From the sequence record OZ346222.1: a DNA stretch of 64,000 nucleotides. One strand, 5' to 3'. Shown one piece after another: positions 14,260 through 27,805 of the stretch. The notes under the pieces are model-generated. The model was given only the letters and a program-made list of their open reading frames with translations. It made no database searches and was not told where the DNA came from. Within the stretch, counting starts at the first letter, position 1, and every line of letters begins with the position of its first letter. The stretch is from a phage. A program made the translations under genes and the position numbers.

Positions 14260-14280
14260 TAAAACGCAGGAGATAAAGTT

Positions 14281-14716: not shown

Positions 14717-15042
14717 CAGAGATCATCATTTCAACTGCAGGGTATGTGTTCCTGACAATCATTGCACTGACCATTCTGGTGGTGGTATATGGAATTGTTA
14801 TTCTCCCTATTCTTGAGACAATTAGTTTGTGTCGGTGTTGGAGAAAGGCTTACGGTCCACAGCCGTGGAAGGACTGGCCCCACCTGGTGCACATAGCGTT
14901 CTCTTATGCTTATGATCACGCCAGCAGTGCATGCATAACCGGGTATCACGCCCACAACTGGAGCTGGGAAGGGTTGAGGAAATGGAATGTTACAAAGACC
15001 ATACCTCTGCGCATGTACAAACCTAAAAACAAAGACAGCTGA
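14713..15042 (+). CDS. membrane protein (109 aa)
   Basis: N-terminal hydrophobic segments; ATGA overlap. Confidence 0.45.
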   Translation: MTEIIISTAGYVFLTIIALTILVVVYGIVILPILETISLCRCWRKAYGPQPWKDWPHLVHIAFSYAYDHASSACITGYHAHNWSWEGLRKWNVTKTIPLRMYKPKNKDS

Positions 15043-15071
15043 TACTTGAAAATCCCTGGCATATCAAGTGT

Positions 15072-15110
15072 AAGGAGGATTTCTAAAATGGATTTCCTCC
15101 TTTTGATATT
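15072..15110 (+). terminator. rho-independent terminator
   Basis: AAGGAGGA ... TCCTCCTT hairpin followed by T-rich run. Confidence 0.5.
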
Positions 15111-15355
15111 TCACCGGGCCAGATATTTTAAAATTCTTAGAAAATCAGAAAATGGATCGAAAACTAAAATGGATTTTTCAAGACAGGCACGATAAGATGT
15201 GCTGCTCATTCTATCGTTCGCACCGTACTTTAAGTCACTATTCCAGATTTTTCCGCACATACTCTCACCCTTCTACCAGAACTTTCCCAGCTTACCTCTG
15301 ACCTTTTATAACAATAAGTCCATTATTATCAGAAAGTTTCGGCACATCTCTTTCG

Positions 15356-15550
15356 GTACTCGATCTGTTTTTCATTTCAAAGACCTGATTTTCTGAAAAT
15401 TTTTCTCGATAAATTTCTTAGTACTCGATCTGTTTTTCATTTCAAAGACCTGATTTTCTGAAAATTTTTCTCGATAAATTTCTTAGTACTCGATCTGTTT
15501 TTCGTTTTCTGAATCGGATTTTCTGGAAATCGTTCCAGCTCTCGACCTGA
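15356..15550 (+). repeat. tandem direct repeat, about 65-bp unit, 2 perfect copies plus 1 degenerate
   Basis: GTACTCGATCTGTTTTTCATTTCAAAGACCTGATTTTCTGAAAATTTTTCTCGATAAATTTCTTA repeated head-to-tail; within a 1.1-kb ORF-poor island. Confidence 0.8.
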
Positions 15551-15744
15551 AATTTTTGGGGACGAAATCGATTTTTCGTTTTCAGAAATGGATTTTTAAA
15601 ATTTCTATATGGGAATATTTTATGGGATACTGTTTTATAGGAAATTGTTACGGAGGGTAATTAGCATGCTAATTAAATTTATTAAATGCGAGGAGTTCTC
15701 ATTTAGAATTTTGAATGATAATCATTCTCGTTTGCAGAATAACG

Positions 15745-15915
15745 GGCAGGCCCGGTGATTGTCTCCCGGCCCCTACTGCCCCGGCTTGTTATTATAGTAT
15801 CACACAGGACAAAGAAAGCAAGGATTTTTTGCATAAATTTTTAAATGATAATGATAACCGTTCTCATTTTATGCAGCGCCCATCCCCGGTGGTTGTCTCC
15901 CCCGTCACCGGTGCC
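15745..15915 (+). repeat. GC-rich dispersed repeat pair (GGCAGGCCnGGTGATTGTCTCCC-like)
   Basis: Two related copies about 150 bp apart, each preceded by GATAAT ... TGCAG; inverted copy at 25520-25545. Confidence 0.5.
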
Positions 15916-16123
15916 TGCCGTCCTTTCGATAGGTATATCGTGCCACCTGGCGGGGCCGCTGTCAACACTTTTCAAAAAATTTTTCTAACCTGATGCGCTA
16001 ACCGCTGCAACCTGGCGGGGTCAGCCTGGCAGGACCTAACTGACCGGGTAGGAGAGAATGAAGGCTTGTAAACCTGGTGGGCCTATGCTACAGGATAGGT
16101 AACAATTGAAGAGGAGGTACAAA

Positions 16124-16297
16124 AATGAAAGGTAATATGATCCCCCTAGAAAATGTAGCTATTAATGACGCTGAGGCTATCGCCCTGGTTGAAAAGGCTA
16201 TGGCGGGAGCGTTGGAACATAAAGAAGAGTACGAAAAATGGTGGTTAACCTGGCGGGGGCGGCAGGTGGATTCTATCATAAAAATAATTTAAAATAG
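16124..16297 (+). CDS. hypothetical small protein (about 57 aa)
   Basis: ATG 5 nt after GAGGAGGT; below ORF-track threshold; hand translated. Confidence 0.35.
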
Positions 16298-16300
16298 TCG

Positions 16301-16328
16301 TTGACAACAAGGTTAATCATGGTATTAT
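16301..16328 (+). promoter_or_regulatory. sigma70-type promoter
   Basis: TTGACA, 16-bp spacer, TATTAT. Confidence 0.5.
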
Positions 16329-16378
16329 TACCCTACAAGGTGAACAACACCGCACTAACCAGTAAAGAGGATAAATTT

Positions 16379-16576
16379 ATGAACGCATACGGGATCAAAG
16401 TACGTCGCAACACTCGCCAGGTGGTCACCAATCAAGTGATTTGCCGGGTGGATGTAACCATCAACAACGGGCAAGGCCTTTATAAATTTCGTCGCGGTCA
16501 TAGCTATACCCTGCAACAGCTTAATCGTTGCGCCCTGACAAAAGGTCAGATCAACCATTGGTTTAATAAAAAATAA
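16379..16576 (+). CDS. hypothetical protein (65 aa)
   Basis: ATG after GAGGATAAA; ORF-track start at 16301 coincides with the -35. Confidence 0.45.
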   Translation: MNAYGIKVRRNTRQVVTNQVICRVDVTINNGQGLYKFRRGHSYTLQQLNRCALTKGQINHWFNKK

Positions 16577-16579
16577 GTA

Positions 16580-16608
16580 TTGACATACAGTCCGACACCA
16601 AATACACT
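16580..16608 (+). promoter_or_regulatory. sigma70-type promoter
   Basis: TTGACA, 17-bp spacer, TACACT. Confidence 0.5.
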
Positions 16609-16640
16609 AAAAGCACAAAAGACACTAAGAGGATAAAATC

Positions 16641-17039
16641 ATGAAAACCACTACCTTTAATTTTGATAATGCAGACTTTTCTTTTTCTGATGTCAAGAAC
16701 TGCCGCCGTGATCGTGGATTTTACAAGGCTTATAATCTGGTGGGCCTGGACGATGACAATAATTTGCACGAAGTAGCTGAGATCCGGTATTATGCCGCCG
16801 CCAGCGGTAACACTAACTACTGCGTTTTTTGGATACACGACAACAAGAACAATAAGTACGGTTATACTGGTGGCAAGGCGAGCGGTCACGGTTACGATAA
16901 AGCTAATGCAGCACTTGAGAGCGCATTAAATGCTATGGGGATCACTGCCAACGGCTGGATCTATGAAGAAGAGTTTTTGTCGGCACTTGCTGACCACCTG
17001 GGCTATAAAAAGCACATTGTAACATGCGCCCACGAATAA
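16641..17039 (+). CDS. hypothetical protein (132 aa)
   Basis: RBS AAGAGGATAAAATC-ATG. Confidence 0.5.
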   Translation: MKTTTFNFDNADFSFSDVKNCRRDRGFYKAYNLVGLDDDNNLHEVAEIRYYAAASGNTNYCVFWIHDNKNNKYGYTGGKASGHGYDKANAALESALNAMGITANGWIYEEEFLSALADHLGYKKHIVTCAHE

Positions 17040-17045
17040 AAATTG

Positions 17046-17073
17046 TTGACACGCTGCAAAATTCAAGTAAACT
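17046..17073 (+). promoter_or_regulatory. sigma70-type promoter
   Basis: TTGACA, 16-bp spacer, TAAACT; followed by 5' leader hairpin. Confidence 0.5.
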
Positions 17074-17121
17074 AGTCACAAAAGGCGGGAATGTTTCCCG
17101 CCAACACAAAGGAAAAAGATC

Positions 17122-17526
17122 ATGAATAAGAACGTACGCCGCATCATGAACGAACTGGCAAACGATGAAAAAATTATTGACATGCATTTGATCAACATTT
17201 GCCGCCGTTGTGTAACATACAACAACCGCGCCGCAAAAGCGCGTGAGATGAACGCAAAAGGCACCTTAAAGCCATTCCAGGTGGTGGTAAAGGCCATTAA
17301 AGATGTAACTAATACGGCAAACCAGGTACAGGGGAACACCAACGAGAGTACCAATATTGATCCGGCTTACATCATGAAACGGATCCGGACCTGCAAGAAC
17401 AAAGAGCAAGTGTATAATGTCATAGACTGGTTGGATTCTATGGGCGATGTGGTGTACAATAGATTCTCGGCAGCTATTGAGATCCAGCTTGACAGGTTAG
17501 ACGGTAAAGTACTTAAAACTTACTAA
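17122..17526 (+). CDS. hypothetical protein (134 aa)
   Basis: Conserved leader/RBS ACAAAGGAAAAAGATC-ATG. Confidence 0.5.
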   Translation: MNKNVRRIMNELANDEKIIDMHLINICRRCVTYNNRAAKAREMNAKGTLKPFQVVVKAIKDVTNTANQVQGNTNESTNIDPAYIMKRIRTCKNKEQVYNVIDWLDSMGDVVYNRFSAAIEIQLDRLDGKVLKTY

Positions 17527-17533
17527 ATTTATT

Positions 17534-17572
17534 TTTAGATGGCCTTGACTCCAGGGCCATCAATAAAGTAAA
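17534..17572 (+). repeat. promoter-like stem-loop repeat element, copy 1
   Basis: GATGGCC-TTGACTCCAG-GGCCATC hairpin with TTGACT in loop and TAAA(G/T)T about 17 bp downstream; T-run precedes hairpin. Confidence 0.6.
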
Positions 17573-17606
17573 TTAATCTCAGCTAAGCGAAAAAGGGGGC
17601 TTTAAG

Positions 17607-17726
17607 ATGAGCACTACACGCCAATACACAAAGGTAACTATTATCGCCTGCGTTGTCGGTTACATCCTGGCGCAAATGTTAATGAGTAGCGCTAACAGTT
17701 TTGCAAAATTTTTCTTAAATTTTTAA
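17607..17726 (+). CDS. small membrane peptide (39 aa)
   Basis: ATG after AAAAGGGGG; hydrophobic core; below ORF-track threshold. Confidence 0.35.
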   Translation: MSTTRQYTKVTIIACVVGYILAQMLMSSANSFAKFFLNF

Positions 17727-17754
17727 TTGACAAGCTAACTTAGATTGATATACT
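17727..17754 (+). promoter_or_regulatory. sigma70-type promoter
   Basis: TTGACA, 16-bp spacer, TATACT. Confidence 0.5.
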
Positions 17755-17805
17755 TAAACACGTAAACGGGAAAACTTCCCAGAACACACAAAAGGAGAAA
17801 ACACC

Positions 17806-18147
17806 ATGACTACTATGGCCGCCGCAGAAAAAGCTATTCAGATCGCCGCACTGAAAAAACAGATCGCAGACCTTGAGAACAAGATCGATAACTTTGAAAT
17901 CGACGAGGACAAGTACGACGAAAACTATGATGAATGGTTAGACGAGATCTACGGCGAAATTATGATCGGAAACATTTCTTTTCTTCCGTCGCGTATCCTC
18001 AAGGAGCTAGATCCTATCGCTTACCGCTGCGGATTTAGCGACTACATCGACAGCCTGGATATTGAGGACGATGAAGAATACCAGGAATTACAGACAGAGT
18101 TAGAAGAAGCAAAAGAAGAGCTTGCAGAACTGGAAGAAAACGAGTAA
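17806..18147 (+). CDS. hypothetical acidic coiled-coil protein (113 aa)
   Basis: Conserved leader/RBS; Glu/Leu-rich C-terminus. Confidence 0.5.
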   Translation: MTTMAAAEKAIQIAALKKQIADLENKIDNFEIDEDKYDENYDEWLDEIYGEIMIGNISFLPSRILKELDPIAYRCGFSDYIDSLDIEDDEEYQELQTELEEAKEELAELEENE

Positions 18148-18154
18148 GATTATT

Positions 18155-18193
18155 TTTAGATGGCCTTGACTCCAGGGCCATCAATAAAGTAAA
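18155..18193 (+). repeat. promoter-like stem-loop repeat element, copy 2
   Basis: Near-identical to 17534-17572. Confidence 0.6.
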
Positions 18194-18236
18194 CTTTATA
18201 CTGTTAACACTGAACTAATGCATAGGAGTTAAAACC

Positions 18237-18482
18237 ATGGCAGCACTAATCACCAAATATTATGCCCCTACCAACACCAAAAGCGCCCGTATCATGGTAA
18301 AAGGCTTCGGACGTAAAAAGGTGTACACCTGGGATTATGCCTTAGACACGGAAGACAACTACACCAACGCGATGACCGATTTTATTAATGATCTGAACAC
18401 GCGGATCTTGACAAATTATAAAATTACCGATATTGCCTATATAGGGGAAGGCGGGATCTGTTTTGTCGGTATCGTCAAATAA
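18237..18482 (+). CDS. hypothetical protein (81 aa)
   Basis: RBS TAGGAG. Confidence 0.45.
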   Translation: MAALITKYYAPTNTKSARIMVKGFGRKKVYTWDYALDTEDNYTNAMTDFINDLNTRILTNYKITDIAYIGEGGICFVGIVK

Positions 18483-18485
18483 GCT

Positions 18486-18530
18486 GTTTTTTCGGTGGTC
18501 CTGGTAGCAGGGCCATCTATAAAGATAGTT
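18486..18530 (+). repeat. promoter-like stem-loop repeat element, divergent copy 3
   Basis: GGTCCTG ... CAGGGCC hairpin with G.U, followed by ATCTATAAAG. Confidence 0.4.
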
Positions 18531-18557
18531 TATCAATACAATGAAAGGAGAAAGTAC

Positions 18558-18911
18558 ATGATCAGCGGGGCAAGTTTTATTATTGGCGCTATTGCTACGG
18601 CTTTAATTGTAAACAAGATCCAATCTAAAAACGAAAAAGATAGCAACGCCCTTACAGAATACCCGTTTTGGGTATTCAACGACAATGAAGACTATATTAT
18701 CAAGTACAAGAATGAGAAGGGCGACCAGGTAACACCGCGACCGATCCCGGCTTACAAGATGCAAGAAACACTATACCGCCTAAAGGCTGGAGGCGCAAAA
18801 ATCGTAGACTTTTGGGGATACGATCACACAGATCAGGAAGTTATAAAGCGCCGTATCCGGGCTATTCAGGCCAATATTGAAGTTAGCAAGGGGGGAATAT
18901 ATGAAGATTAA
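18558..18911 (+). CDS. membrane-anchored protein (117 aa)
   Basis: ATG after AAAGGAGAAAG; N-terminal TM helix. Confidence 0.45.
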   Translation: MISGASFIIGAIATALIVNKIQSKNEKDSNALTEYPFWVFNDNEDYIIKYKNEKGDQVTPRPIPAYKMQETLYRLKAGGAKIVDFWGYDHTDQEVIKRRIRAIQANIEVSKGGIYED

Positions 18912-19098
18912 TTTTGAGAAGATTGTAAAGCGATCTCATGCTTCCGAAGAGCTGCCGGAACGCCGCCAGCGCAACAATAAACTGAATAAGCCAAAAAGAT
19001 TTGGGAAGATCTGGCGGAATCATTATGATCGCAAATTACCGGGCCTGCTTTTGGAACGTGAACGACAGGCGGAACGATACCGCCACAAAGGCAAATAA
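18901..19098 (+). CDS. hypothetical basic protein (65 aa)
   Basis: ATG after AAGGGGGGAA; overlaps upstream stop. Confidence 0.4.
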   Translation: MKINFEKIVKRSHASEELPERRQRNNKLNKPKRFGKIWRNHYDRKLPGLLLERERQAERYRHKGK

Positions 19099-19106
19099 CA
19101 ACCAAC

Positions 19107-19135
19107 GCCCCGCCATTGTGCGGGGCTTTTTATTT
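19107..19135 (+). terminator. rho-independent terminator
   Basis: GCCCCGC ... GCGGGGC hairpin followed by TTTTTATTT. Confidence 0.65.
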
Positions 19136-19256
19136 CTATCCTACGAATAGCGCCCCTGGTTGGCCCTGTAAGCGCCAAAAAGGCCCCACCTATGCAATCG
19201 CCCACCTTTAACCTGAAAACATCGCTTAGGGCCGTTTTATGGCGTTAAAAATATCA

Positions 19257-19307
19257 TTGACAGTGATTTTATTTAAAGCTTGACATCTTAAACAGGTTAG
19301 CTATACT
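19257..19307 (+). promoter_or_regulatory. sigma70-type promoter with tandem -35 hexamers
   Basis: TTGACA at 19257 and 19280; 16-bp spacer; TATACT. Confidence 0.5.
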
Positions 19308-19341
19308 AACCACATCAAAGAGAGAGAAAGGAGTAAACGCC

Positions 19342-19602
19342 ATGCGTAAATTAAAAAATTTTGATAAAGTTGATGTTGTCCTGAATAATTTTTACTACTG
19401 CAACAACAAGGCCATTTGGTGGCGTGATAGTTCCACCGATAAAGTCAAGGCGCGCTTTCTCCAGGGGCACTGGCAAGGCCGCCCAGTGATTAAAATCATG
19501 GGGCAATTGGTAGCGTTTAAAAATTGCCGCCGTGTTGATGACGTTGAAGAGATCTTGAATATTTTACGCCACAATAATTTAAAAAATAGTGTTGACAAGT
19601 AA
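19342..19602 (+). CDS. hypothetical protein (86 aa)
   Basis: RBS AAAGGAG. Confidence 0.5.
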   Translation: MRKLKNFDKVDVVLNNFYYCNNKAIWWRDSSTDKVKARFLQGHWQGRPVIKIMGQLVAFKNCRRVDDVEEILNILRHNNLKNSVDK

Positions 19603-19619
19603 ATCTCAATAAGTATACT
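19592..19619 (+). promoter_or_regulatory. sigma70-type promoter
   Basis: TTGACA, 16-bp spacer, TATACT; followed by GCGGGAAGTTTTCCCGC leader hairpin. Confidence 0.5.
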
Positions 19620-19676
19620 TAAGCACACAGGCGGGAAGTTTTCCCGCCACTAACAAAGAAAATAGGAGAAAATATC

Positions 19677-20300
19677 ATGACCACCGTTAACATTACCACA
19701 GGTTGCAATTTATCTTTCGACGTGCTGACCGACGAACAAAAAGAAAAAGCTGTTGAAATGGTCCGCGAAAGAGAAGAACACAGCGGGGATAACTTTTTTG
19801 CAGAAAGTGTAATTGAATACTATAAAGAATATGTTTTTCCAGAGTACGGGCTTGAAGATACCAAGGTACAGTGGTCCGGCTTTTGGTGTCAAGGCGACGG
19901 CGCATCAATTAGCGCTGAAAATGTAAACTTAGAAAAATTCTTGCGTAAGGTTAAAGCGCTTACAAAATTTCGCTCAATTAGACACTTGTTCGGCACAATG
20001 CACGATGGCGAACTATCAGCCAGCGTTGAACGTATCCCGTTTAGCCATTATCATCACGAAAACACAATAGGCGGGTGCATCGATACCAACTGGCTAGACC
20101 TGACCACCAAGCAAGAGGATAAAATTGAAGAGCTGGAAGAGCTGATCACCGAGACGGTACGGGAGCTATCCCGCAAGGTTTACGTAGACCTGGAGCAGGC
20201 CTATCTTGAACAATTCACTACCGAAAACCTGATCGGCCTTATCGAGGCCAATGATTGGCGGTTTGATGTGGATGAGTATGGCGAGATGACTTTTTCATAA
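19677..20300 (+). CDS. hypothetical protein (207 aa)
   Basis: Conserved leader/RBS. Confidence 0.5.
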   Translation: MTTVNITTGCNLSFDVLTDEQKEKAVEMVREREEHSGDNFFAESVIEYYKEYVFPEYGLEDTKVQWSGFWCQGDGASISAENVNLEKFLRKVKALTKFRSIRHLFGTMHDGELSASVERIPFSHYHHENTIGGCIDTNWLDLTTKQEDKIEELEELITETVRELSRKVYVDLEQAYLEQFTTENLIGLIEANDWRFDVDEYGEMTFS

Positions 20301-20308
20301 ATAAAGTG

Positions 20309-20336
20309 TTGCAATAACCTAAAAACCTGCTATATT
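20309..20336 (+). promoter_or_regulatory. sigma70-type promoter
   Basis: TTGCAA, 16-bp spacer, TATATT. Confidence 0.45.
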
Positions 20337-20389
20337 AAAACTCAAGGGGCAAGACGTTTGCCCCCACACAAAACAAAGAGGAAAACATC

Positions 20390-20770
20390 ATGAAAAACAC
20401 TACTAAAGCTATTGACACCGTTATGTTTAACCTGGTTACCTTTCGCGAGGATATGAAAGATCTTCCACGTGAAACAGTGTGCGATCACATTGAAAACTAT
20501 CGCAAACTAATCAAAGAGTTGCCTTTAAAACGTGACCAGTATGCGGCTAACGCCATGCTTAATGCCATGATCAAAAAGATGATTCAGTGTGATTTAACTC
20601 TGGCCTATGACTATGCGGGTGGTCGTTTTGCAGTATACAATCAGCCCGTGCCCGGTATGGGCACCACCGAAGAATTGCACGCGCTCAATCTAAAACAAGA
20701 CGTATGGGATAACATGCCCCGCGTGGTGGTGTGGGCAGAAAGCGGAAAGATTTACGGCGATAATTTTTAA
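20390..20770 (+). CDS. hypothetical protein (126 aa)
   Basis: Conserved leader hairpin plus RBS. Confidence 0.5.
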   Translation: MKNTTKAIDTVMFNLVTFREDMKDLPRETVCDHIENYRKLIKELPLKRDQYAANAMLNAMIKKMIQCDLTLAYDYAGGRFAVYNQPVPGMGTTEELHALNLKQDVWDNMPRVVVWAESGKIYGDNF

Positions 20771-20780
20771 TCAGGTAACA

Positions 20781-20806
20781 GGCGGCATATTTGCCGCCTT
20801 ATTGTT
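20781..20806 (+). terminator. rho-independent terminator
   Basis: GGCGGCA ... TGCCGCC hairpin followed by T-rich run. Confidence 0.55.
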
Positions 20807-20834
20807 AAACAGAGTTGCAAAAGAGGTACATAGA

Positions 20835-21206
20835 ATGGAATTTATTATTTTGGCTGTAGTAGTTGCCTTGTTCAACGCCTGGATCGCTGGCAAGATGGGT
20901 AGATCCGCCTTTTTATGGTTTATTATATCTATTTTCCTGGGGGTGGTTGCAACTATTGTACTTGTTATCCTTGCAATTGTTGACAAGGGGAATAATAGAA
21001 AGGGTAAAGTATTTTCAGACCTGTACGACGCTCAAACGTTTGTCAACGCCTATTATAGTGATCTTCCAGTCTCCCTACGCTGCAGCCTGGCACAACAAGT
21101 TTTCGATGAGGCTAAAACCAGAGATCAAGCCCATGAGATATGTTTAACTGAGGCGGATCGCCTATTTGAGAGGAATAGAAAATATGTGGGCCAACCGTTT
21201 AAATAA
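20835..21206 (+). CDS. membrane protein (123 aa, two predicted TM helices)
   Basis: ATG after AAAGAGG; hydrophobic N-terminal half. Confidence 0.45.
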   Translation: MEFIILAVVVALFNAWIAGKMGRSAFLWFIISIFLGVVATIVLVILAIVDKGNNRKGKVFSDLYDAQTFVNAYYSDLPVSLRCSLAQQVFDEAKTRDQAHEICLTEADRLFERNRKYVGQPFK

Positions 21207-21429
21207 TGCCACGTTAATTAATCCCTTTAGTGAAGATTTGAAGCCAGCCGCCTGGCGTGATGGATTCAATAACGAACGCTTTATTTTCAAGCCTGATCTT
21301 GAGGAATTTTATAACAATGGATCGAACAACAGCGGAGATAATTTTTCTTGGGATGTGCGTGGTGATGGTACTCCTGGGGGCCATTGTAAACCACGTCACT
21401 ACTACCAGGAGGAAAGAGGGAGACGATGA
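21184..21429 (+). CDS. hypothetical protein (81 aa)
   Basis: ATG after GAGGAA; alternative overlapping frame (21257..21442) also open. Confidence 0.3.
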   Translation: MWANRLNNATLINPFSEDLKPAAWRDGFNNERFIFKPDLEEFYNNGSNNSGDNFSWDVRGDGTPGGHCKPRHYYQEERGRR

Positions 21430-21549
21430 CAACCAAGGATAAGCCCCGTACCGATAAGGCGCGCCGGGTTATGGTATGGCTTGAGATCATCGCCCTTGAA
21501 ATATTGCTAGGCGTAGGGATGTACTTTATCGCTGTAAGTAACTAAGAGC

Positions 21550-21578
21550 GGCCCCCGATCATGGGGGCCTATCTTTTA
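21550..21578 (+). terminator. rho-independent terminator
   Basis: GGCCCCCGATCATGGGGGCC hairpin followed by TATCTTTT. Confidence 0.6.
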
Positions 21579-21599
21579 AAAAATTTTTCTTCCGGGGTG

Positions 21600-21627
21600 T
21601 TGCAATCCGGTCCGGAATGTGGATAAT
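21600..21627 (+). promoter_or_regulatory. sigma70-type promoter
   Basis: TTGCAA, 16-bp spacer, GATAAT; similar to element at 22763. Confidence 0.45.
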
Positions 21628-21683
21628 AACAATCAACGGGGAGCTAATCCCCACCACCACAAAAACCAGAAAGGAGAAACAAA

Positions 21684-21884
21684 ATGAGCAACAATATCCG
21701 CGTTATTAACTTCAAAAAAGAAGAAAAAATTGCCGTGCTGATTGACGGTCAAGAAATCTTCAAGGGCGACTATGAAGATCATCAAACGGCGATTAGTATC
21801 ACTCGCGTGATTGGTTATCATAATTTCTACCCCCAAGGCGCTGAGGCAGCAGTTAAACGAATCAAAGAGATTGTAGGCCTGTAA
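21684..21884 (+). CDS. hypothetical protein (66 aa)
   Basis: Conserved leader/RBS. Confidence 0.45.
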   Translation: MSNNIRVINFKKEEKIAVLIDGQEIFKGDYEDHQTAISITRVIGYHNFYPQGAEAAVKRIKEIVGL

Positions 21885-21891
21885 AATTTAT

Positions 21892-21931
21892 TTTTAGATG
21901 GCCTTGACTTCAGGGCCATCGATAAAGTAAA
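21892..21931 (+). repeat. promoter-like stem-loop repeat element, copy 4
   Basis: GATGGCC-TTGACTTCAG-GGCCATC; near-identical to copies 1 and 2. Confidence 0.6.
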
Positions 21932-21977
21932 TTTAAACCCTGTTAAAATACCACGCAGTTAACAAGGAGTGATAGAC

Positions 21978-22277
21978 ATGTTTATCCAGGCTAATAATCT
22001 TTATTTCTTTGATGGTCAGATCGTAGATGGTGTGGAAGTGGAGATCACCGGGTGCCCTGGCGGTCAGGCTATGACTTTTCGGAATAATGCCTTTGATGAT
22101 TCTCATATCGTTATGAGAATGGAAGTTACGAAGCTGGACGACAAGAAAACACTTATTGACTATTCTGTGAAAGATCATCCAGACTACCGCATGATCCATG
22201 GTGATTTGTGCATTGTTGACCGTGACAAGGTGGGCGGCATTGTGATCGCTATTGTGAACGATGTTTTCTCAAACTAA
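21978..22277 (+). CDS. hypothetical protein (99 aa)
   Basis: ATG 8 nt after AAGGAG. Confidence 0.45.
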   Translation: MFIQANNLYFFDGQIVDGVEVEITGCPGGQAMTFRNNAFDDSHIVMRMEVTKLDDKKTLIDYSVKDHPDYRMIHGDLCIVDRDKVGGIVIAIVNDVFSN

Positions 22278-22294
22278 TTTCAGCAGGCGATTTT

Positions 22295-22645
22295 ATGAAA
22301 GTCAAACTATATTACCTTAATGAGCTTAACCCCCTTGCCCAGGTCCGCGCCCTAGCTAATACCTTGATTTGTGAGAAATCTGTATATTGTGTTGAGCTTA
22401 ACGCCATGCGTGAACGTCTCAAAGGTGGTTACTTTGACATCCATGCTGCAATCAACGGCCTGAATATGGAATTTATACGCTTACGTAACAGCCGCCGGAA
22501 TCTGGCAAGAATGGAACAAGATCCGGCCCACCTTCGTAAGCTGGTTATTGAAAATCATCTGATGTTTAATGCCGAGGGTGATTATTACCATTTTCACCGC
22601 AAACGCTGGTACCGTGGCGGCAATACAGGCAAGAATGCAAAATAA
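22295..22645 (+). CDS. hypothetical protein (116 aa)
   Basis: In gene array; followed by hairpins. Confidence 0.45.
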   Translation: MKVKLYYLNELNPLAQVRALANTLICEKSVYCVELNAMRERLKGGYFDIHAAINGLNMEFIRLRNSRRNLARMEQDPAHLRKLVIENHLMFNAEGDYYHFHRKRWYRGGNTGKNAK

Positions 22646-22680
22646 GGCCCCTAGCAGGGCCTGCAGCAATATAATCACAT

Positions 22681-22714
22681 AAAGGCCATGCGGTTGCATG
22701 GCCTTTATTATTTT
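22681..22714 (+). terminator. rho-independent terminator
   Basis: AAGGCCATGC-GGTT-GCATGGCCTT hairpin followed by T-rich run. Confidence 0.6.
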
Positions 22715-22762
22715 GGCGTTACAACGGCATACGGGGCGCTTAAAAAATTTTTAAAGAAGTAC

Positions 22763-22790
22763 TTGCATCATTCCCGACAATATGGATAAT
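22763..22790 (+). promoter_or_regulatory. sigma70-type promoter
   Basis: TTGCAT, 16-bp spacer, GATAAT. Confidence 0.45.
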
Positions 22791-22847
22791 AAGAGTTGTC
22801 GAGGGGGAGGCCCCCAATCGTTGACCAGATAGATAGGAGTTAAAATC

Positions 22848-23132
22848 ATGGCTATTGTTACCGCTGGCGATGTAGTAGAAATGGAAGCAAAATACTTAAA
22901 AGCGGGTATGCACATCCTACGGAATGATCAAGAGCTATTATTAACGATGGTTGACTATAATCACGGCCAGGATTATCCAAGCATCGACTACTTTTTTGAG
23001 TATGTTGATGAAGAGTTGAAAGAGGATGAGGCCTATTGCGGTGAGTTCTGCAACTTCTTTTGTCCTGATGAGGTTGTAAAGGTTATTTATCAACCTGGCG
23101 TAGCTTTCCCGCTGCACGCTATCAATAAATAA
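22848..23132 (+). CDS. hypothetical protein (94 aa)
   Basis: RBS TAGGAG. Confidence 0.5.
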   Translation: MAIVTAGDVVEMEAKYLKAGMHILRNDQELLLTMVDYNHGQDYPSIDYFFEYVDEELKEDEAYCGEFCNFFCPDEVVKVIYQPGVAFPLHAINK

Positions 23133-23187
23133 ACCTGGCGGGGCCGAAAAGGCCCCCAATTATGAAAATAAAGAGAGGCAAATCATC

Positions 23188-23421
23188 ATGATGGAACAAA
23201 TTAAACGCGCCGAGGCTATTAATGGCAACGTGATCTATTTTGTCAGCAAAAACGAAAAAGGCGTACCATATGCGGCAGTAATAGTACAACCTGACGGCGA
23301 TTATTGGTTTACTGTGTACGGCGCTTATTCTTTTGGGCGTCCAGTGCATGATAAAATTTTGAAAGTAGCGAACCCTACCGGGAAGAATATCACAGCAGAA
23401 AAATTTTTTGAAAATAGTTGA
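23188..23421 (+). CDS. hypothetical protein (77 aa)
   Basis: RBS AGAGAGG. Confidence 0.45.
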   Translation: MMEQIKRAEAINGNVIYFVSKNEKGVPYAAVIVQPDGDYWFTVYGAYSFGRPVHDKILKVANPTGKNITAEKFFENS

Positions 23422-23445
23422 CATGACCATATAAGACTGTAATAT
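23418..23445 (+). promoter_or_regulatory. sigma70-type promoter
   Basis: TTGACA overlapping stop codon; 16-bp spacer; TAATAT. Confidence 0.5.
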
Positions 23446-23496
23446 ATAAATCAAAGGGGGCAACGAACCCCACCAACTACAAAGAGGATAAAAATC

Positions 23497-23676
23497 ATGG
23501 CTATTATTGCAAAGACTGAGATCATAGGCTTAGATTCTATTCTCCTCGCATATGAGGAAGCTATAGAAATGTATGTGGTTTCCTATGGTGAGTATATCCG
23601 TGAATATAAATCTATTGATCTGGCTTTTGAATGTTATATCCGCCAGGTTAATAAAGCGTACGATGATTATCGTTAA
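23497..23676 (+). CDS. hypothetical small protein (59 aa)
   Basis: Conserved leader/RBS; below ORF-track threshold. Confidence 0.4.
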   Translation: MAIIAKTEIIGLDSILLAYEEAIEMYVVSYGEYIREYKSIDLAFECYIRQVNKAYDDYR

Positions 23677-23682
23677 AATAGT

Positions 23683-23711
23683 TTGACAACAGCCATCTTA
23701 CAAAGCATAAT
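23683..23711 (+). promoter_or_regulatory. sigma70-type promoter
   Basis: TTGACA, 17-bp spacer, CATAAT. Confidence 0.5.
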
Positions 23712-23763
23712 ACATAAGGCGGTGGAATGGTCCGCCACCTGGAACAAAGAAGAGGTAAACACC

Positions 23764-24009
23764 ATGAAAAGCAATAAAGGTTATAACGGTTACAAAAACA
23801 AAACTCATTGGAATGTAAGCCTTTGGATTAATAACGATGAGTCATTGTACCGGTTGGCCCAAGGCTTTATTAACGCCAATGCTAATCGTAATGATGCGGC
23901 GCGGGATATGATGCTTTTTCTGGAGCTAACCGGACAAGATAAGACCCTGGACGGCTTCAAGTACAGCACTACGGCGATCCGTGCCGCGATGGTTGGAATG
24001 AAACACTAA
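23764..24009 (+). CDS. hypothetical protein (81 aa)
   Basis: ATG after conserved AGAGGTAAACACC leader. Confidence 0.45.
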   Translation: MKSNKGYNGYKNKTHWNVSLWINNDESLYRLAQGFINANANRNDAARDMMLFLELTGQDKTLDGFKYSTTAIRAAMVGMKH

Positions 24010-24086
24010 AAGCACATAGCTGCCTTACCCTGGGGCTGTGGTAGCGGCCCCATGAATAAGGTTACTAACAGAAGAGAATAAACACC

Positions 24087-24191
24087 ATGAAACAGAAATT
24101 AATCGATGCAGTGATCTTGGTTATTGCCCTGGGTATTGGCCTGATTGCAACCATGTCTAATATGATCTTGTCTTCCAACGGTATCGGGTGA
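24087..24191 (+). CDS. small membrane peptide (34 aa)
   Basis: ATG after AGAGAATAAACACC; single hydrophobic helix; hand translated. Confidence 0.3.
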   Translation: MKQKLIDAVILVIALGIGLIATMSNMILSSNGIG

Positions 24192-24200
24192 GGTTGGCAA

Positions 24201-24416
24201 ATGATCACTAACAAAACAGGCAAAACGGAATTTTTACGCAACTTACAGATCGGCAAGCCTGAGATCTGGTACTGCACTAAAACACCGCGTGACGAAATGA
24301 AAGACTTCACCGCCACGCTGCAACGGGTAAAGATATCTATCACGCAGAAAAAGGCCTTACTAGTGGTGGAAGGGGAGATCCCCCAAACCGTTGTTATAGT
24401 TGATCGTACAGCATAG
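24201..24416 (+). CDS. hypothetical protein (71 aa)
   Basis: RBS GGTGAGG. Confidence 0.4.
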   Translation: MITNKTGKTEFLRNLQIGKPEIWYCTKTPRDEMKDFTATLQRVKISITQKKALLVVEGEIPQTVVIVDRTA

Positions 24417-24507
24417 TTTAATTTATACAGATACCTGAAAATTAACCAACAAAGCATAAACAGGCGGTTACCGCCGCCTTAAACGTAGCAGAAAGAGGAT
24501 AGGCACA

Positions 24508-24792
24508 ATGAAAAAGATGATCGCAGTGGTTACCCTGGTTGTTGGACTTAATGCGCCTGTAATGGCTAAAGAGCTGGCAAAAGAGGTTAATCTAACGGAT
24601 ATTCATGCCGTCAATCAAATCGGGGTTACTTATCGCTTATGCCTTGCCGCTAAAACTTTTAAGGACGGCACAACAGAGTACTACGGATTCGAGGGTATCC
24701 GGTGCGGTGAGCTTGCTCGCGACCTTAAGGAAGATCCAGACCTGGAGGATCTGCCCATAACCGTGAACGGGAAAACTTACGTGAACCGTTAA
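24508..24792 (+). CDS. secreted/periplasmic protein (94 aa, N-terminal signal peptide)
   Basis: MKKMIAVVTLVVGLNAPVMA signal-like N-terminus; AGAGGATAGG RBS. Confidence 0.45.
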   Translation: MKKMIAVVTLVVGLNAPVMAKELAKEVNLTDIHAVNQIGVTYRLCLAAKTFKDGTTEYYGFEGIRCGELARDLKEDPDLEDLPITVNGKTYVNR

Positions 24793-24794
24793 CC

Positions 24795-24929
24795 ATGAGA
24801 AAGATAATTATTACCATGGGGATCGTGGCGGCAATGTTGGCGATCTTTCCCTTTATGGTTAGGTATGTGCTGATTAATGTTGTCCTGGTAGTCAGCGATC
24901 TGGTGTTATATATTAACTCATTGTTTTAG
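24795..24929 (+). CDS. small membrane peptide (44 aa)
   Basis: Hydrophobic throughout; hand translated. Confidence 0.3.
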   Translation: MRKIIITMGIVAAMLAIFPFMVRYVLINVVLVVSDLVLYINSLF

Positions 24930-24937
24930 GCGCGATA

Positions 24938-25129
24938 ATGACAGCGGAAGAAGTTAAAAAAGTACTGGCGGTACTGCGTTATCATAATCATTGCAAGGTG
25001 AAGAATGATCCTGATTATCTTGATTCATCCCTTGAAGAGGATACACTACAAGCCATAAGCAACATGCAAGAATTGCTTAAGCGTATGACAGAGAAAAACC
25101 GACCGGACTACATAGGGGGTAAAATATGA
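24938..25129 (+). CDS. hypothetical protein (63 aa)
   Basis: In gene array. Confidence 0.4.
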   Translation: MTAEEVKKVLAVLRYHNHCKVKNDPDYLDSSLEEDTLQAISNMQELLKRMTEKNRPDYIGGKI

Positions 25130-25437
25130 TCGCTATTACGCCAACCGTTTTAGATTGGTATCGGCAACGCATAGCGCCTCCGCTGGCTATCTTCAAAGAT
25201 GCGGAAGCAAAACAACGCCGGATCTCAATACATGAGATCATCAACCTTAACGCTGGAGGCACACCATACCGCCCAGGACCTGGCCGTGAGATGGACAATA
25301 CATTGGCGATCCTGAAGATACGCCGTAAACGGTCCTCCCTTACGCTGGATTCATTACACACAATGCAGTCTCCGTTCCAGGTGACTGGGAAACGGATCGC
25401 CAGGTCCTGGACAAAGGCCAATGACCGGACCGTATAA
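25126..25437 (+). CDS. hypothetical protein (103 aa)
   Basis: ATGA overlap with upstream gene. Confidence 0.4.
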   Translation: MIAITPTVLDWYRQRIAPPLAIFKDAEAKQRRISIHEIINLNAGGTPYRPGPGREMDNTLAILKIRRKRSSLTLDSLHTMQSPFQVTGKRIARSWTKANDRTV

Positions 25438-25572
25438 ATAAAAAGTGTTTTGGTACTGATTTTGGGGTTGACTTGTTCGGCCCCTTTTGCTATTCTTATT
25501 AAACGGGCGGCACTTGGGAACAGGGGGAGACAATCACCAGGCCTGCCTGTCATATAAGAACTATAAAAACCG

Positions 25573-25601
25573 TTGACATCTGCCAGGGGGTGGGGTAACA
25601 T
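25573..25601 (+). promoter_or_regulatory. sigma70-type promoter
   Basis: TTGACA, 17-bp spacer, TAACAT; followed by leader hairpin. Confidence 0.5.
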
Positions 25602-25655
25602 TTATCTTGAAGGGGCAAAGGTGCCCACACAACAACCAGAAGAGAGGAAAACACT

Positions 25656-25928
25656 ATGTCAAGCTGGATTAATCAAGAAGTCGAATCACGTTTTAATGCT
25701 ATTTGGGATCTCATCGAAAAAGAAGACGGCACATCAAGCCCCTACCTCAACAATTTGGAATTCCATTTTGTGGAAGCGATGAACGCAGAACATGATCACG
25801 AAGGTGGTGCGGACGAGTTCGCTAAAGGGTATGGCTTCAACAATGCCAACGAAATGATCGAGGCGGTTGTACTCCAGGCTGAGGAAGATTATCAATTAAA
25901 AACGCTTGAATTCTGCCGCCGCAAGTAA
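25656..25928 (+). CDS. hypothetical acidic protein (90 aa)
   Basis: Conserved leader/RBS. Confidence 0.5.
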   Translation: MSSWINQEVESRFNAIWDLIEKEDGTSSPYLNNLEFHFVEAMNAEHDHEGGADEFAKGYGFNNANEMIEAVVLQAEEDYQLKTLEFCRRK

Positions 25929-25988
25929 TAAGATAATGACACGGGCCGGGAGGCCCACTAATCAGAACCACACAAAGAGGTAAACATC

Positions 25989-26252
25989 ATGAAACGTCTT
26001 GATCAGCTTAAACTAGTTCAGTACATGGCCTACAAAGTTCTTGAAGTCCAAAAAGGTAGCAAAAAAGAGGTTTGCGAGAAAGCGTACAAGATCTTTACCC
26101 GTAAAAAAGATGATTGGATGTTACGCCAGACCAAAAAAGCCGATATCTTGGGGTACCTGGAAGAAGAGATCCGACTTGAAGAGCAAGAAGAGATCCGCCG
26201 CAGTGAGGCAGATTATCAGGCAGCCTGGGAAAACTGGATGAGCAACAAATAA
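25989..26252 (+). CDS. hypothetical protein (87 aa)
   Basis: Conserved leader/RBS. Confidence 0.5.
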   Translation: MKRLDQLKLVQYMAYKVLEVQKGSKKEVCEKAYKIFTRKKDDWMLRQTKKADILGYLEEEIRLEEQEEIRRSEADYQAAWENWMSNK

Positions 26253-26319
26253 TACAACAAGTTGCACGATCAGGGGGCAATAAAGCCCCTTGATCACATA
26301 AAAATTATGCTATCCTTGG

Positions 26320-26348
26320 TTGACAAGGATCGGCAGTTTTGCTATATT
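26320..26348 (+). promoter_or_regulatory. sigma70-type promoter
   Basis: TTGACA, 17-bp spacer, TATATT. Confidence 0.5.
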
Positions 26349-26396
26349 CTTTTTGAAGGGAAGTTGTAAGAAAATTAACTAAGAGGTAAAAACACC

Positions 26397-26816
26397 ATGA
26401 ACATTAAATCTAATAATCCGGCATATAGCTTTGATAACGCTTTTTGTCACGGTCCGGCGGCGAAAGGATTCGAAATCGATGGTAAACTAATTATTGTCAA
26501 TGTTGACGGGGAAGAGGTTGCAGTATATCCGGTGGCAGACGTAAAAAGCCGTTTACAATGCCGCATGGATGTTACCGCCTATCAGCTTGATCCGGTCCGC
26601 ATAGTTGCCCTGGTCCTGGAAGAAGAAATTAAAGCCATGCACCATAGCAACAGATTTATTGGTGACGCGCAGGATAATATGAAAGTATGCCGCCATAAAG
26701 TTAATGAAGTGCTTAAAGAGTACGGCTATAAAGATCTTATGATCAAACGTGAGGAAAAATTCCGCTACCGTAACGACCTGGCAAATCGGATTTTTGAAAT
26801 ATACGAATCATTATAA
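26397..26816 (+). CDS. hypothetical protein (139 aa)
   Basis: RBS AAGAGG; last gene of rightward block. Confidence 0.5.
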   Translation: MNIKSNNPAYSFDNAFCHGPAAKGFEIDGKLIIVNVDGEEVAVYPVADVKSRLQCRMDVTAYQLDPVRIVALVLEEEIKAMHHSNRFIGDAQDNMKVCRHKVNEVLKEYGYKDLMIKREEKFRYRNDLANRIFEIYESL

Positions 26817-26834
26817 TTTTTTAACTGAATTATC

Positions 26835-26860
26835 AAGGGGCTTAGGCCCCTTTCTTTTTG
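26835..26860 (+). terminator. rho-independent terminator
   Basis: AAGGGGC-TTAG-GCCCCTT hairpin followed by TCTTTTT. Confidence 0.6.
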
Positions 26861-27477
26861 TCTGCTCTTCCCCCTACCATAAACGGCCCTACCTGGCAAG
26901 TGGAATAATTGACGAGCCATCAATCCCACACACTGTACAAATATACATGTAAAATAACTATTGCATAACCTTTCATTGTGTGGTAGCGGTGCTATTTTTT
27001 ACCTGTTTTCCTTCCAAAATTGCACGTAATGCAGCTATTGCACAAAATTTAACCTGATGCACATCTCCAATATCCTGTCAACAACTAAAAATCTTTATAA
27101 GTCATACACTTACACAGCATCGAAAGCGTGTTCTACGCGAAAAATCGAGTATAACTATAGCCGCCAGATCTCAGAATTCACGTACGCACGCCATTCTATA
27201 GCCTGCAAAGTATTTATTCCAACCACAGAATAACGGAATAGTCAATACCTGAATAAAATAATTATTCGTTTAAACTGCATAACATAAATCAGCTCAGGTG
27301 TCAACATTTTTCGTAAACAGTCTGAAATTGTCACTGTGAGTTATCATAAACAGAGAAATCTTTAGTCGTATAATGTTTACTGTACGTTACTATACTGACT
27401 GGAATCATTAGATGACTAATAGAAAGATAAGAAATAATTAACAATACAATTATTTTACCTGTAACAATAAGACAACT

Positions 27478-27726
27478 ATGCAAACGAATGGCATGGCGCG
27501 ACGGAGTCGCGACATAATATAAAAGCAGTAACCATCACCCCCGTGATGGTTTGTCTGCAATCTATTAATCAGATCATAGTTGCCTTGTATTCAGTTAATC
27601 ATGACATAATAAGCAAGGCAACTATAGATCTGCTAATAGTTGCCCTGCTTTTATATTATGTCATATATTATTAACTTGTTAATTGTTAACTTGCTAATTG
27701 TTTTCATGCAAACGAATGTCATGGCT
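27478..27726. repeat. palindrome-rich module flanked by 21-bp direct repeats
   Basis: ATGCAAACGAATG(G/T)CATGGC at 27478 and 27706; perfect 18-bp inverted repeat GACATAATATAAAAGCAG / CTGCTTTTATATTATGTC (27510/27645); 12-bp inverted repeat CATAGTTGCCTTG / CAAGGCAACTATG; several short hairpins. Confidence 0.75.
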
Positions 27727-27734
27727 TATCCTAT

Positions 27735-27805
27735 CTGTGTAAACAGTTAAGGTGTAAACTATCCAGGCGTAAACAGTCTATGCGGGAACAATCTATACGT
27801 GAACA
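27735..27805. repeat. iteron-like array of GT(A/G)AACAG octamers
   Basis: GTAAACAG / GTAAACTA / GTAAACAG / GTGAACAG spaced 10-20 bp; further copies near 27313, 28078, 28790. Confidence 0.6.

Follow-up and report, generated by a model that had tools for sequence, protein, structure and literature searches.

The closest described counterpart of the elements reported here is the cassette named PeSL (promoter-early stem-loop), which Arbiol et al. (2010; PMC2839356) defined in phages RB49 and phi1 as an AT-rich stretch followed by a consensus sigma70 promoter, a stem-loop, and the Shine–Dalgarno (SD) sequence and ATG of an ORFan. A G tract and a C tract often make up the stem-loop, and PeSLs cluster in hyperplastic regions. 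Five subclasses were distinguished by the position of the stem-loop; positions between the promoter boxes or overlapping them are the commonest, and 'downstream of the -10' is also included. PeSLs recombine, which gives rise to indels and packaged mini-circles, and a role in modular gene shuffling was proposed for them. The stem-loop itself was proposed to act as a terminator or attenuator, and the authors speculated on a protein that recognizes GGGG...CCCC. PeSLs were later extended to other T4-like phages (T4/PST and KVP40/nt-1; Comeau et al. 2014, PMC4122927). Here we analyse the repeated promoter cassettes at positions 16301-26396 of a 64 000-nt stretch of phage DNA (sequence record OZ346222.1), which as a whole is called the window. 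With a probability of roughly 0.55, this region is a hyperplastic early-gene arm made of PeSL-type cassettes, in which the stem-loop that follows the promoter (class I, below) protects or insulates the 5' end of early mRNA.

A second point of comparison comes from mRNA decay. RNase E is sensitive to the 5' end of mRNA, as reviewed in PMC3997798, where the work of Emory, Bouvet and Belasco on the 5' stem-loop stabilisers of the ompA and papA leaders is listed.

Over its full length the region shows 93-96.5% nucleotide identity to Vequintavirus genomes (Escherichia phages A6-1, AlexBoehm, rV5_ev168, Murica and rV5), and by this comparison the window phage is an rV5-like coliphage (Vequintavirus). 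The region corresponds to open reading frames (ORFs) 196 to 164 of rV5, which are small rightward hypothetical genes. In the rV5 paper, four transcription units were proposed, one of which ends with this run of ORFs, and 33 sigma70 promoters were predicted genome-wide. Several promoters of the arm are marked in the rV5 GenBank record (P195A/B, P192, P186, P168 and P164). Hairpins after promoters are not mentioned in the main text of the rV5 paper. The literature that we searched discusses PeSLs for T4-like phages only, single passing mentions aside, and no report of PeSLs in rV5-like phages was found in it.

A repeated unit of promoter, hairpin and leader

We scanned positions 16251-26400 for TTGACA-N16-18-TATAAT with at least 10 of 12 matching bases. 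The + strand gave 11 sites and the - strand none, compared with 1.85±1.28 sites (maximum 6) in dinucleotide shuffles. In a gene-by-gene check, 17 genes were found to have a promoter of their own directly upstream of their SD-ATG, a count that takes in 9/12 sites and two 8/12 sites in this location. A first-pass annotation, made from the sequence alone, had placed a near-consensus sigma70 promoter before at least 12 short rightward genes, and these numbers bear it out. The 20 nt upstream of the -35 hexamer consist of 55-95% AT (at least 75% in 12 of 14 promoters), and the window of 57%.

Ten of the 17 promoters are followed by a GC hairpin (class I), in line with the view of the same annotation that most of these genes carry a GC-rich 5' hairpin. 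Four others have none, and three are combined with a different hairpin element (class II, below). The class I cassettes are listed here, with promoter hexamers and spacer length and with hairpin free energies (kcal/mol) in brackets:

17046..17124, + strand: class I; TTGACA-16-TAAACT; hairpin GGCGGGAATGTTTCCCGCC at 17084-17102 (-13.1); leader AACACAAAGGAAAAAGATC; ATG at 17122
17727..17808, + strand: class I with weak hairpin; TTGACA-16-TATACT; hairpin GGGAAAACTTCCC at 17768-17780 (-4.0); ATG at 17806
19592..19679, + strand: class I; TTGACA-16-TATACT; hairpin GGCGGGAAGTTTTCCCGCC at 19630-19648 (-13.1); ATG at 19677
20309..20392, + strand: class I; TTGCAA-16-TATATT (TG-extended); hairpin GGGGCAAGACGTTTGCCCC at 20346-20364 (-11.1); leader CACACAAAACAAAGAGGAAAACATC; ATG at 20390
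21600..21686, + strand: class I; TTGCAA-16-GATAAT; hairpin GGGGAGCTAATCCCC at 21638-21652 (-7.8); ATG at 21684; 30 nt after the terminator at 21550-21569
22762..22850, + strand: class I; TTGCAT/TG-GATAAT (8/12); hairpin GGGGGAGGCCCCC at 22803-22815; ATG at 22848; after the terminator at 22679-22708
23418..23499, + strand: class I; TTGACA-16-TAATAT; hairpin GGGGGCAACGAACCCC at 23456-23471 (-6.9); ATG at 23497
23683..23766, + strand: class I; TTGACA-17-CATAAT; hairpin AGGCGGTGGAATGGTCCGCCACCT at 23717-23740 (-12.9); ATG at 23764
25573..25658, + strand: class I; TTGACA-17-TAACAT; hairpin GGGCAAAGGTGCCC at 25613-25626 (-6.8); ATG at 25656; after the terminator at 25464-25484
25906..25991, + strand: class I; TTGAAT-17-TAAGAT (8/12); hairpin GGGCCGGGAGGCCC at 25943-25956 (-10.0); leader ...CCACACAAAGAGGTAAACATC; ATG at 25989

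The four promoters of the arm that lack the GC hairpin are as follows:

16301..16381, + strand: promoter-only cassette; TTGACA-16-TATTAT (11/12, TG-extended); 50-nt leader with a weak hairpin only (-3.0); ATG at 16379
16580..16643, + strand: promoter-only cassette; TTGACA-17-TACACT; 32-nt leader without hairpin; ATG at 16641
19258..19344, + strand: tandem -35 cassette; TTGACA at 19258 and at 19280, 22 nt apart, then TATACT; no hairpin; ATG at 19342
26320..26399, + strand: promoter-only cassette; TTGACA-17-TATATT (11/12); no GC hairpin; ATG at 26397

The class I hairpin starts 5-13 nt after the -10 hexamer (9-11 nt in seven of the ten), has a stem of 4-9 bp and, in the window, a loop of 3-8 nt, and is followed by a leader of 19-32 nt. 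Hairpins of -6.5 kcal/mol or lower within 15 nt of the -10 hexamer were present in 9 of the 17 leaders; when the leaders were shuffled, the number was 0.79±0.86 (maximum 4). Three hairpins had been given positions in the first-pass annotation. The position of GCGGGAATGTTTCCCGC (17085) was correct, GGGGCAAGACGTTTGCCCC had to be moved from 20345 to 20346, and GCGGGAAGTTTTCCCGC from 19625 to 19631.

The leader motif AAAGAGGAAAACAYCATG, searched with up to 3 mismatches, occurs six times, always on the + strand and within the region, against an expectation of 0.13. A conserved ribosome-binding-site leader, as claimed earlier for these genes, is therefore present. Downstream of the hairpins the leaders contain 56% A, 20% C, 16% G and 8% T, and in each of the ten class I cassettes an SD-like run (GAGG, GGAG, AGGA or AAGG) ends ~7-10 nt upstream of the ATG.

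The start site was predicted at the first purine found 6-9 nt beyond the -10 hexamer; in most cases this is the A of a CA step. The 5' tail before the class I hairpin that follows from this predicted start site would be 0-6 nt long, with a median of 3. Such tails fit the stabilisation of mRNA by 5' hairpins to which the first-pass annotation had appealed and which is an established mechanism in E. coli (PMC3997798). When the leader was folded together with 45 nt of coding sequence, all ten class I hairpins were part of the minimum-energy structure, and their stems had pairing probabilities of 0.90-0.99.

The repetition had also been taken to mean that small early genes with uniform high expression arose by cassette duplication. 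The ten class I genes fall into ten different PHROG families, each of unknown function, and one of the ten matches Pfam DUF7249. The thing repeated is thus a regulatory unit of ~80 nt and not the genes, whose origin by gene duplication is ruled out by the ten different protein families.

Conservation of the hairpin structure

We aligned the class I cassettes with orthologs from up to 11 loci (Murica, rV5, 241Ecol014PP, JLBYU08, CM1, nimi, YN3, RudolfGeigy, nomo and two IMG/VR contigs). For the 207-aa gene, IMG/VR yielded no more than two close relatives, and GenBank phage records supplied the other orthologs. Relative to the window sequence, differences amounted to 0.3% in the -35 hexamer, 2.4% in the -10 hexamer and 2.1% in the hairpin stem. 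They reached 8.8% in the promoter spacer, 8.2% in the start region, 7.2% in the leader and 30% in the loop. In the stems, then, change is as rare as in the promoter hexamers, against 30% in the loops, and this shows the structure to be under selection. The stem was fully paired in 55 of the 59 distinct ortholog variants, and the other four, each seen at a single locus, combined a mismatch with a weaker fold. Among the orthologs there are stems that are altered yet paired (GGGGGAGGCCCCC vs GGCGGTGAGGCCTCC; GGGGCAA/TTGCCCC vs GGGGGCGAG/CTTGCCCCC). We conclude from these comparisons that the class I hairpin stems are under purifying selection.

A paralog set was assembled from 39 distinct hairpins of the window, of the phages ESCO13, 121Q and WPEC1 (see below) and of one IMG/VR relative, and pairs were counted with the loop as anchor. 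These hairpins hold 19 distinct 5' arms. Of their six innermost positions 90% pair, compared with 63±2.5% (maximum 72%) in 2000 permutations of the 3' arms, and at stem levels 2-4 a G on the 5' arm and a C on the 3' arm are found in 27-35 of the 39. A MAFFT/RNAalifold consensus of 30 paralogous hairpins contained zero predicted pairs; their stem and loop lengths differ.

The sense fold was more stable than the antisense fold in 28 cases and less stable in 8 (Wilcoxon p = 0.0017, a value that is indicative only, the copies being related). This bias is partly due to G-U pairs (GGGCGG...CCGCTC) that become A-C on the other strand. Taken together, the conservation of the stem, the pairing of the arms and the sense-strand bias point to selection on a structure in the sense-strand RNA and not on a sequence read by a protein.

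Other hairpins and terminators of the arm

The arm holds two further kinds of hairpin. A 43-nt repeat, TTATTTTTAGATGGCCTTGACTCCAGGGCCATCAATAAAGTAA, lies at 17529-17571, 18150-18192 and 21888-21930, and its 24-nt core gave 3 matches against 0 expected. In this element (class II) the loop of a 7-bp hairpin contains the -35 hexamer TTGACT, and a -10 hexamer TAAATT or TAAACT follows 18 nt downstream. Class III consists of three promoterless GC hairpins (23140, 24031 and 24462) between a stop codon and the next leader. Intrinsic terminators are also present. These features are:

17529..17609, + strand: class II; 43-nt repeat; hairpin at 17538-17561 with -35 TTGACT in the loop; -10 TAAATT; ATG at 17607
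18150..18239, + strand: class II, second exact copy; hairpin at 18159-18182; ATG at 18237
21888..21980, + strand: class II, third copy, with 1 mismatch in the 24-mer; hairpin at 21897-21920; ATG at 21978
18494..18560, + strand: diverged class II; hairpin GGTGGTCCTGGTAGCAGGGCCATC at 18494-18517 (-16.4; sense-strand G-U pairs); no -35; ATG at 18558
23140..23190, + strand: class III; intercistronic hairpin GGGGCCGAAAAGGCCCC at 23140-23156 (-13.2) and leader; no promoter; ATG at 23188
24031..24089, + strand: class III; hairpin TGGGGCTGTGGTAGCGGCCCCA at 24031-24052 (-16.2) and leader ...GAATAAACACC; no promoter; ATG at 24087
24462..24510, + strand: class III; hairpin AGGCGGTTACCGCCGCCT at 24462-24479 (-11.0) and leader; no promoter; ATG at 24508
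19107..19126, + strand: intrinsic terminator; GC stem, then TTTTTATTT
20780-20799, 21550-21569, 22679-22708, 25464-25484 and 26835-26852, + strand: further intrinsic terminators; GC stem, then T run

The six classical terminators split the arm into several transcription units. Four hairpinless promoters, three or four hairpins that enclose a -35 hexamer, three promoterless hairpins and the match to PeSL cassettes go beyond what the first-pass annotation had described. In the Murica record the variant at 18494 and the copy at 21888 are annotated as 'terminator'; no T run follows them on either strand. In ESCO13, a promoterless hairpin is likewise found upstream of a gene within the segment homologous to window positions 24438-24901.

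Several known kinds of RNA element were considered for class I and rejected. None of the ten hairpins was called as an intrinsic terminator on the + strand, and the leader after the hairpin contains 8% T. Stems of 4-9 bp are too short for RNase III sites such as those of T7 early mRNA, which need about two turns (roughly 20 bp) of double-stranded RNA. Lambda-type nut sites are ruled out by loops that are not conserved and by a promoter of its own for every gene. A search of positions 15500-27500 against Rfam 15 at a permissive threshold returned only one sub-threshold chance match (31.5 bits, compared with a gathering score of 94.4).

On the - strand of the opposite arm, hairpins also follow two strong promoters, whose -10 hexamers end at 35139 and 51710; these hairpins are AAGAGGGTTTGGTTCCCTCTT, 8 nt after the -10, and GGCTCACTTTGTTGGTGAGCC, 2-3 nt after it. 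The remaining promoters of that arm mostly have short leaders and no hairpin. Where the two convergent arms meet there is a gene-poor stretch (~26850-28500, especially 27430-27730), which is probably the one labelled 'non-coding' in Figure 2 of the rV5 paper. It contains nested repeats; these include a perfect inverted repeat of 18 nt at 27511/27645 and, in both orientations, copies of ATAGTTGCC. The stretch could be an origin or a regulatory site.

Recombination at the cassettes

Relative to 11 related genomes, about a dozen classes of indel junction were found within 10 kb, six of which are flanked by cassette repeats: two by pairs of class II elements, two by pairs of leaders, one by two TTGACA hexamers and one by a pair of terminator hairpins. 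About five other junctions had no flanking repeat. The relative L007 lacks 574 nt (genes 17607 and 17806) that in the window lie between exact copies of the 43-nt class II repeat, and gene 18237, which is flanked by class II copies, is missing from 241Ecol014PP. Gene 23764 is flanked by TAAACACCATGAAA, comprising leader and first codons, and is missing from rV5, CM1 and RudolfGeigy. Conversely, rV5 and L007 have an extra gene (rV5 ORF166) between two leader copies, ACTAATCA.AAC...CCACA.AAAGAG. The promoter and gene at 26292-26835 lie between two similar terminator hairpins and are missing from four relatives. In place of the tandem TTGACA at 19258/19280, the IMG/VR relative L008 has two promoters 540 nt apart with extra coding sequence, and the tandem looks like what a deletion between two promoters would leave behind.

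These alignments clearly indicate that recombination between cassettes happens, and the location of the junctions at cassette repeats supports the role in modular gene shuffling that was proposed for PeSLs. The mapped joints lie in the leader, the -35 hexamer, the class II repeat and the terminator hairpins; none lies inside a class I stem. Some loops are present in relatives as the exact reverse complement, with the stems unchanged. This was seen for TGT/ACA (17092-17094) in comparison with L008, for GTT/AAC (19638-19640) with most relatives, and for GACGT/ACGTC (20353-20357) with L018. Each flip is a small inversion at a perfect palindrome. The loop TTAC of the window hairpin at 24462 corresponds to GTAA in the promoterless ESCO13 hairpin of the homologous segment.

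Cassettes in other phages

Homologs of several window genes, with 70-84% nucleotide identity, occur in Phapecoctavirus and jumbo phage 121Q. Like the window, the Phapecoctavirus phages ESCO13 and WPEC1, 121Q and Cronobacter phage CR9 have a promoter, a hairpin, a leader and an ATG before nearly every small gene. In ESCO13 (14000-24800), one cassette recurs almost unchanged in ~20 of 27 intergenic regions (TTGACA-N17, -10, ATCACRT, AGGGCGGCAATGGTGCCGCTC or GGGCGGGAA...TTCCCGC, leader, ATG), and several promoterless hairpin-leaders occur there too. In the 348-kb jumbo phage 121Q (4300-9700) the promoter is TTGCAA-N16-TATAAT with the hairpin 10-12 nt downstream, and WPEC1 carries the promoter-hairpin-leader unit before small early genes. 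Homology across these lineages spans the gene and the last 17-27 nt of the leader and excludes hairpin and promoter. The lineages differ in that each genome has its own near-identical cassette dialect before the shared genes. No papers on such cassettes in Phapecoctavirus/phAPEC8-like phages, 121Q or CR9 were found in the literature searched.

The 90-aa early protein encoded at 25656-25925 has homologs at 33-51% identity in TH13, phSE-2, Sazh and U136B (genomes of ~45-51 kb), which we take to be T1-like siphoviruses. By protein comparison, these homologs show small early genes to travel well beyond myoviruses. The rV5 record describes this protein as RB49-like; tblastn with it gave T1-like siphoviruses and no RB49 among the matches listed, and the RB49 cassettes considered below were then examined directly in the RB49 sequence.

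Analogous repeated units were observed in an unrelated host group, in a locus with 99.5% identity to Mycobacterium phage Thonko and in six GC-rich IMG/VR contigs. This unit consists of TTGACA-N17, a -10-like hexamer, about 9 nt, GGCGGGAA...CCCGCC, SD and ATG. A collection-wide scan for TTGACA...GGCGGGAA gave mostly single matches, which is roughly chance level, and only contigs with multiple matches were used.

Function of the class I hairpin

Each cassette of ~80 nt comprises an AT-rich stretch, a near-consensus sigma70 promoter, a stem-loop formed by a G run, a loop and a C run, a T-poor A/C-rich leader, a strong SD and the ATG. From the consensus match and the strand bias we infer that host RNA polymerase with sigma70 would transcribe each small gene independently at the start of infection. 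The stem-loop, which starts ~10 nt after the -10 hexamer, would then begin at about +1 to +7 of the predicted transcript. It would base-pair the 5' end of the early mRNA or, in promoterless copies, the new 5' end after processing, and RppH and RNase E, whose attack depends on the 5' end, would thereby be hindered. The stem-loop would in addition hold its G-rich bases away from the leader, which would offer the same open ribosome-binding site for any inserted gene. The low T content of the leader, together with a G content largely limited to the SD, would keep that site open whatever gene follows. Being alike, the cassettes also act as short homology patches at which genes are deleted, inserted and swapped between related phages.

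We favour a protective and insulating role at the RNA level because the hairpin has a fixed position near the predicted start, because its pairing is selected and its loops are free, and because of the sense bias and the lack of U tracts. Moreover, the hairpin persists directly after true terminators (21638, 22803 and 25613). On this pattern, a role of the class I hairpin as 5' mRNA protector is plausible. We infer the start sites, the stabilising effect and the early timing of the cassettes from their sequence.

Several observations weigh against mRNA protection. The term '5'-terminal' refers to a predicted start, and neither mapped start sites nor half-lives for rV5-like phages were found in the literature searched, nor was any transcriptomics of Vequintavirus. 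Predicted tails of up to 4-6 nt may, from what work by Belasco reportedly showed, suffice for RppH. The sense-strand bias is of modest size, and the hairpin copies are not independent. Four strong promoters of the same arm (ATGs at 16379, 16641, 19342 and 26397) have no hairpin. In CR9 (800-8900), which belongs to the same subfamily as the window phage, the hairpin is mostly located in the -35/-10 spacer (TTGAC-GGGGCC...GGCCCC-ATAAT), and in RB49 (14500-32300, - strand) the stem-loop mostly fills this spacer or overlaps the -10. In both phages the GC hairpin usually occupies the 17-nt spacer, with the other cassette parts as in the window. Because of these spacer hairpins and the -35-enclosing class II hairpins, a purely 5'-terminal role cannot be common to all such stem-loops. 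Finally, one RB49 stem-loop without an obvious U tract cut the expression of downstream lacZ as strongly as rrnB T1 (PMC2839356).

The lacZ result belongs to the main alternative, which is the published PeSL model. Here the stem-loops would be attenuators or insulators. They would stop or damp polymerase that comes in from cassettes further upstream, and perhaps also polymerase from their own very strong promoter, and so prevent expression from accumulating along the arm. For the window hairpins we regard this as possible, with a minor but real chance of being correct. The model explains why stem-loops occupy such varied sites (within the spacer for RB49 and CR9, surrounding the -35 hexamer for class II, and with no promoter at all for class III), and it accounts better for the spacer-type and -35-enclosing copies. 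For class I, however, it meets 3' flanks that are T-poor and hairpins that never scored as + strand terminators, in an arm that already has six classical terminators. The three class I hairpins directly after terminators would have nothing to stop, and one located at about +4 would have the same damping effect on its own promoter. Nor does this role call for a fixed distance from the -10. The protective and the attenuator role could apply to different positional classes.

A wider proposal, which is tentative and rather improbable as a whole, has the hairpin and the A/C-rich leader go beyond generic stabilisation, as a 'socket' common to unrelated lineages of large coliphages (Vequintavirinae, Phapecoctavirus, 121Q-like jumbo phages and RB49-like phages). 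Early mRNAs of the phage would be marked by the socket to survive at a time when the phage accelerates the decay of host mRNA by RNase E, and small genes could be plugged in and exchanged across families. T4 Srd stimulates RNase E decay of host mRNA (PMC7430671), and the rV5 paper lists gp11 as a probable Srd homolog; that a paired 5' end would spare phage early mRNAs from this decay is speculative. Exchange would be possible because what moves is the gene with the end of its leader, the cassette dialect of each genome staying in place.

We think it unlikely that the inverted repeats act in DNA, either as cruciform or hairpin targets of recombination or as operators at which a DNA-binding protein of phage or host would switch the early promoters off. 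The indel junctions at cassette repeats would suit such a role, as would the flipped loops at 17084, 19630 and 20346, which are hairpin events at the DNA level, the near-identity of the ESCO13 copies and the speculation of Arbiol et al. on a protein recognizing GGGG...CCCC. However, the many stem sequences, loops of 3-8 nt and 30% loop substitution argue against a sequence-specific dimeric binder, the mapped junctions are outside the class I stems, and the G-U pairs favour sense RNA. Recombination is also expected between any repeats without a dedicated function, and a DNA-level role is less likely as the selected function of the hairpins.

It is most improbable that the hairpins terminate leftward antisense transcription entering from the convergent arm: class I hairpins at 17102, 20365, 21656 and 23471 and the promoterless one at 24479 were called terminator-like on the - strand, where the A-rich start region becomes a T-rich tail, but these T runs are short, interrupted and a by-product of the AT-rich -10/start region, the - strand has no promoter of at least 10/12, and the sense fold is the more stable one.

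Comparison with known systems

If the class I hairpin protects early mRNA, the ompA and papA stabilisers are close functional relatives. The window cassettes resemble these in having a short stable hairpin a few nt from the (here predicted) 5' end, followed by an open leader with a strong ribosome-binding site, and in that the hairpin sequence is free so long as pairing is kept. Among phages, T7 offers an example of a 5'-terminal stem-loop in the 5' hairpin of its gene 10 leader. The ompA and papA leaders are single, experimentally proven cases, whereas here a repeated unit is read from sequence before ten unrelated genes.

The cassettes would mark which of the unnamed small genes are switched on first and independently, and first-on small genes are the usual search ground for host-takeover and anti-defence functions. 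For work in E. coli they would also provide a natural set of expression units that are compact, strong and context-insulated. The cassettes that precede homologous genes differ from lineage to lineage, and since the position of the hairpin is itself lineage-specific (in the transcript here, in the spacer in RB49 and CR9), it offers a direct test of whether the stem-loops serve mRNA protection, damping of transcription or both.

Every sequence-level feature by which PeSLs are recognized is present in the window cassettes. They have the AT-rich upstream stretch, the near-consensus sigma70 promoter, the stem-loop with G run and C run, and the SD and ATG at the 3' end; they lie in a variable region before small genes of unknown function, and differences between close relatives often join at cassettes. 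Unlike the PeSLs of T4-like phages, they belong to a Vequintavirus, and unlike the commonest PeSLs, they have ten stem-loops downstream of the -10, three around the -35 and none in the spacer. Terminator activity and mini-circles have been shown for RB49 and phi1, whereas the window cassettes are known from sequence alone. The PeSL way of building and reshuffling early regions extends past the T4-like phages to rV5-like phages, Phapecoctavirus, a jumbo phage and CR9. By their sequence, the window cassettes are of the PeSL type, mostly with the stem-loop in the transcribed leader; they represent a known kind of element, found here in an rV5-like phage.

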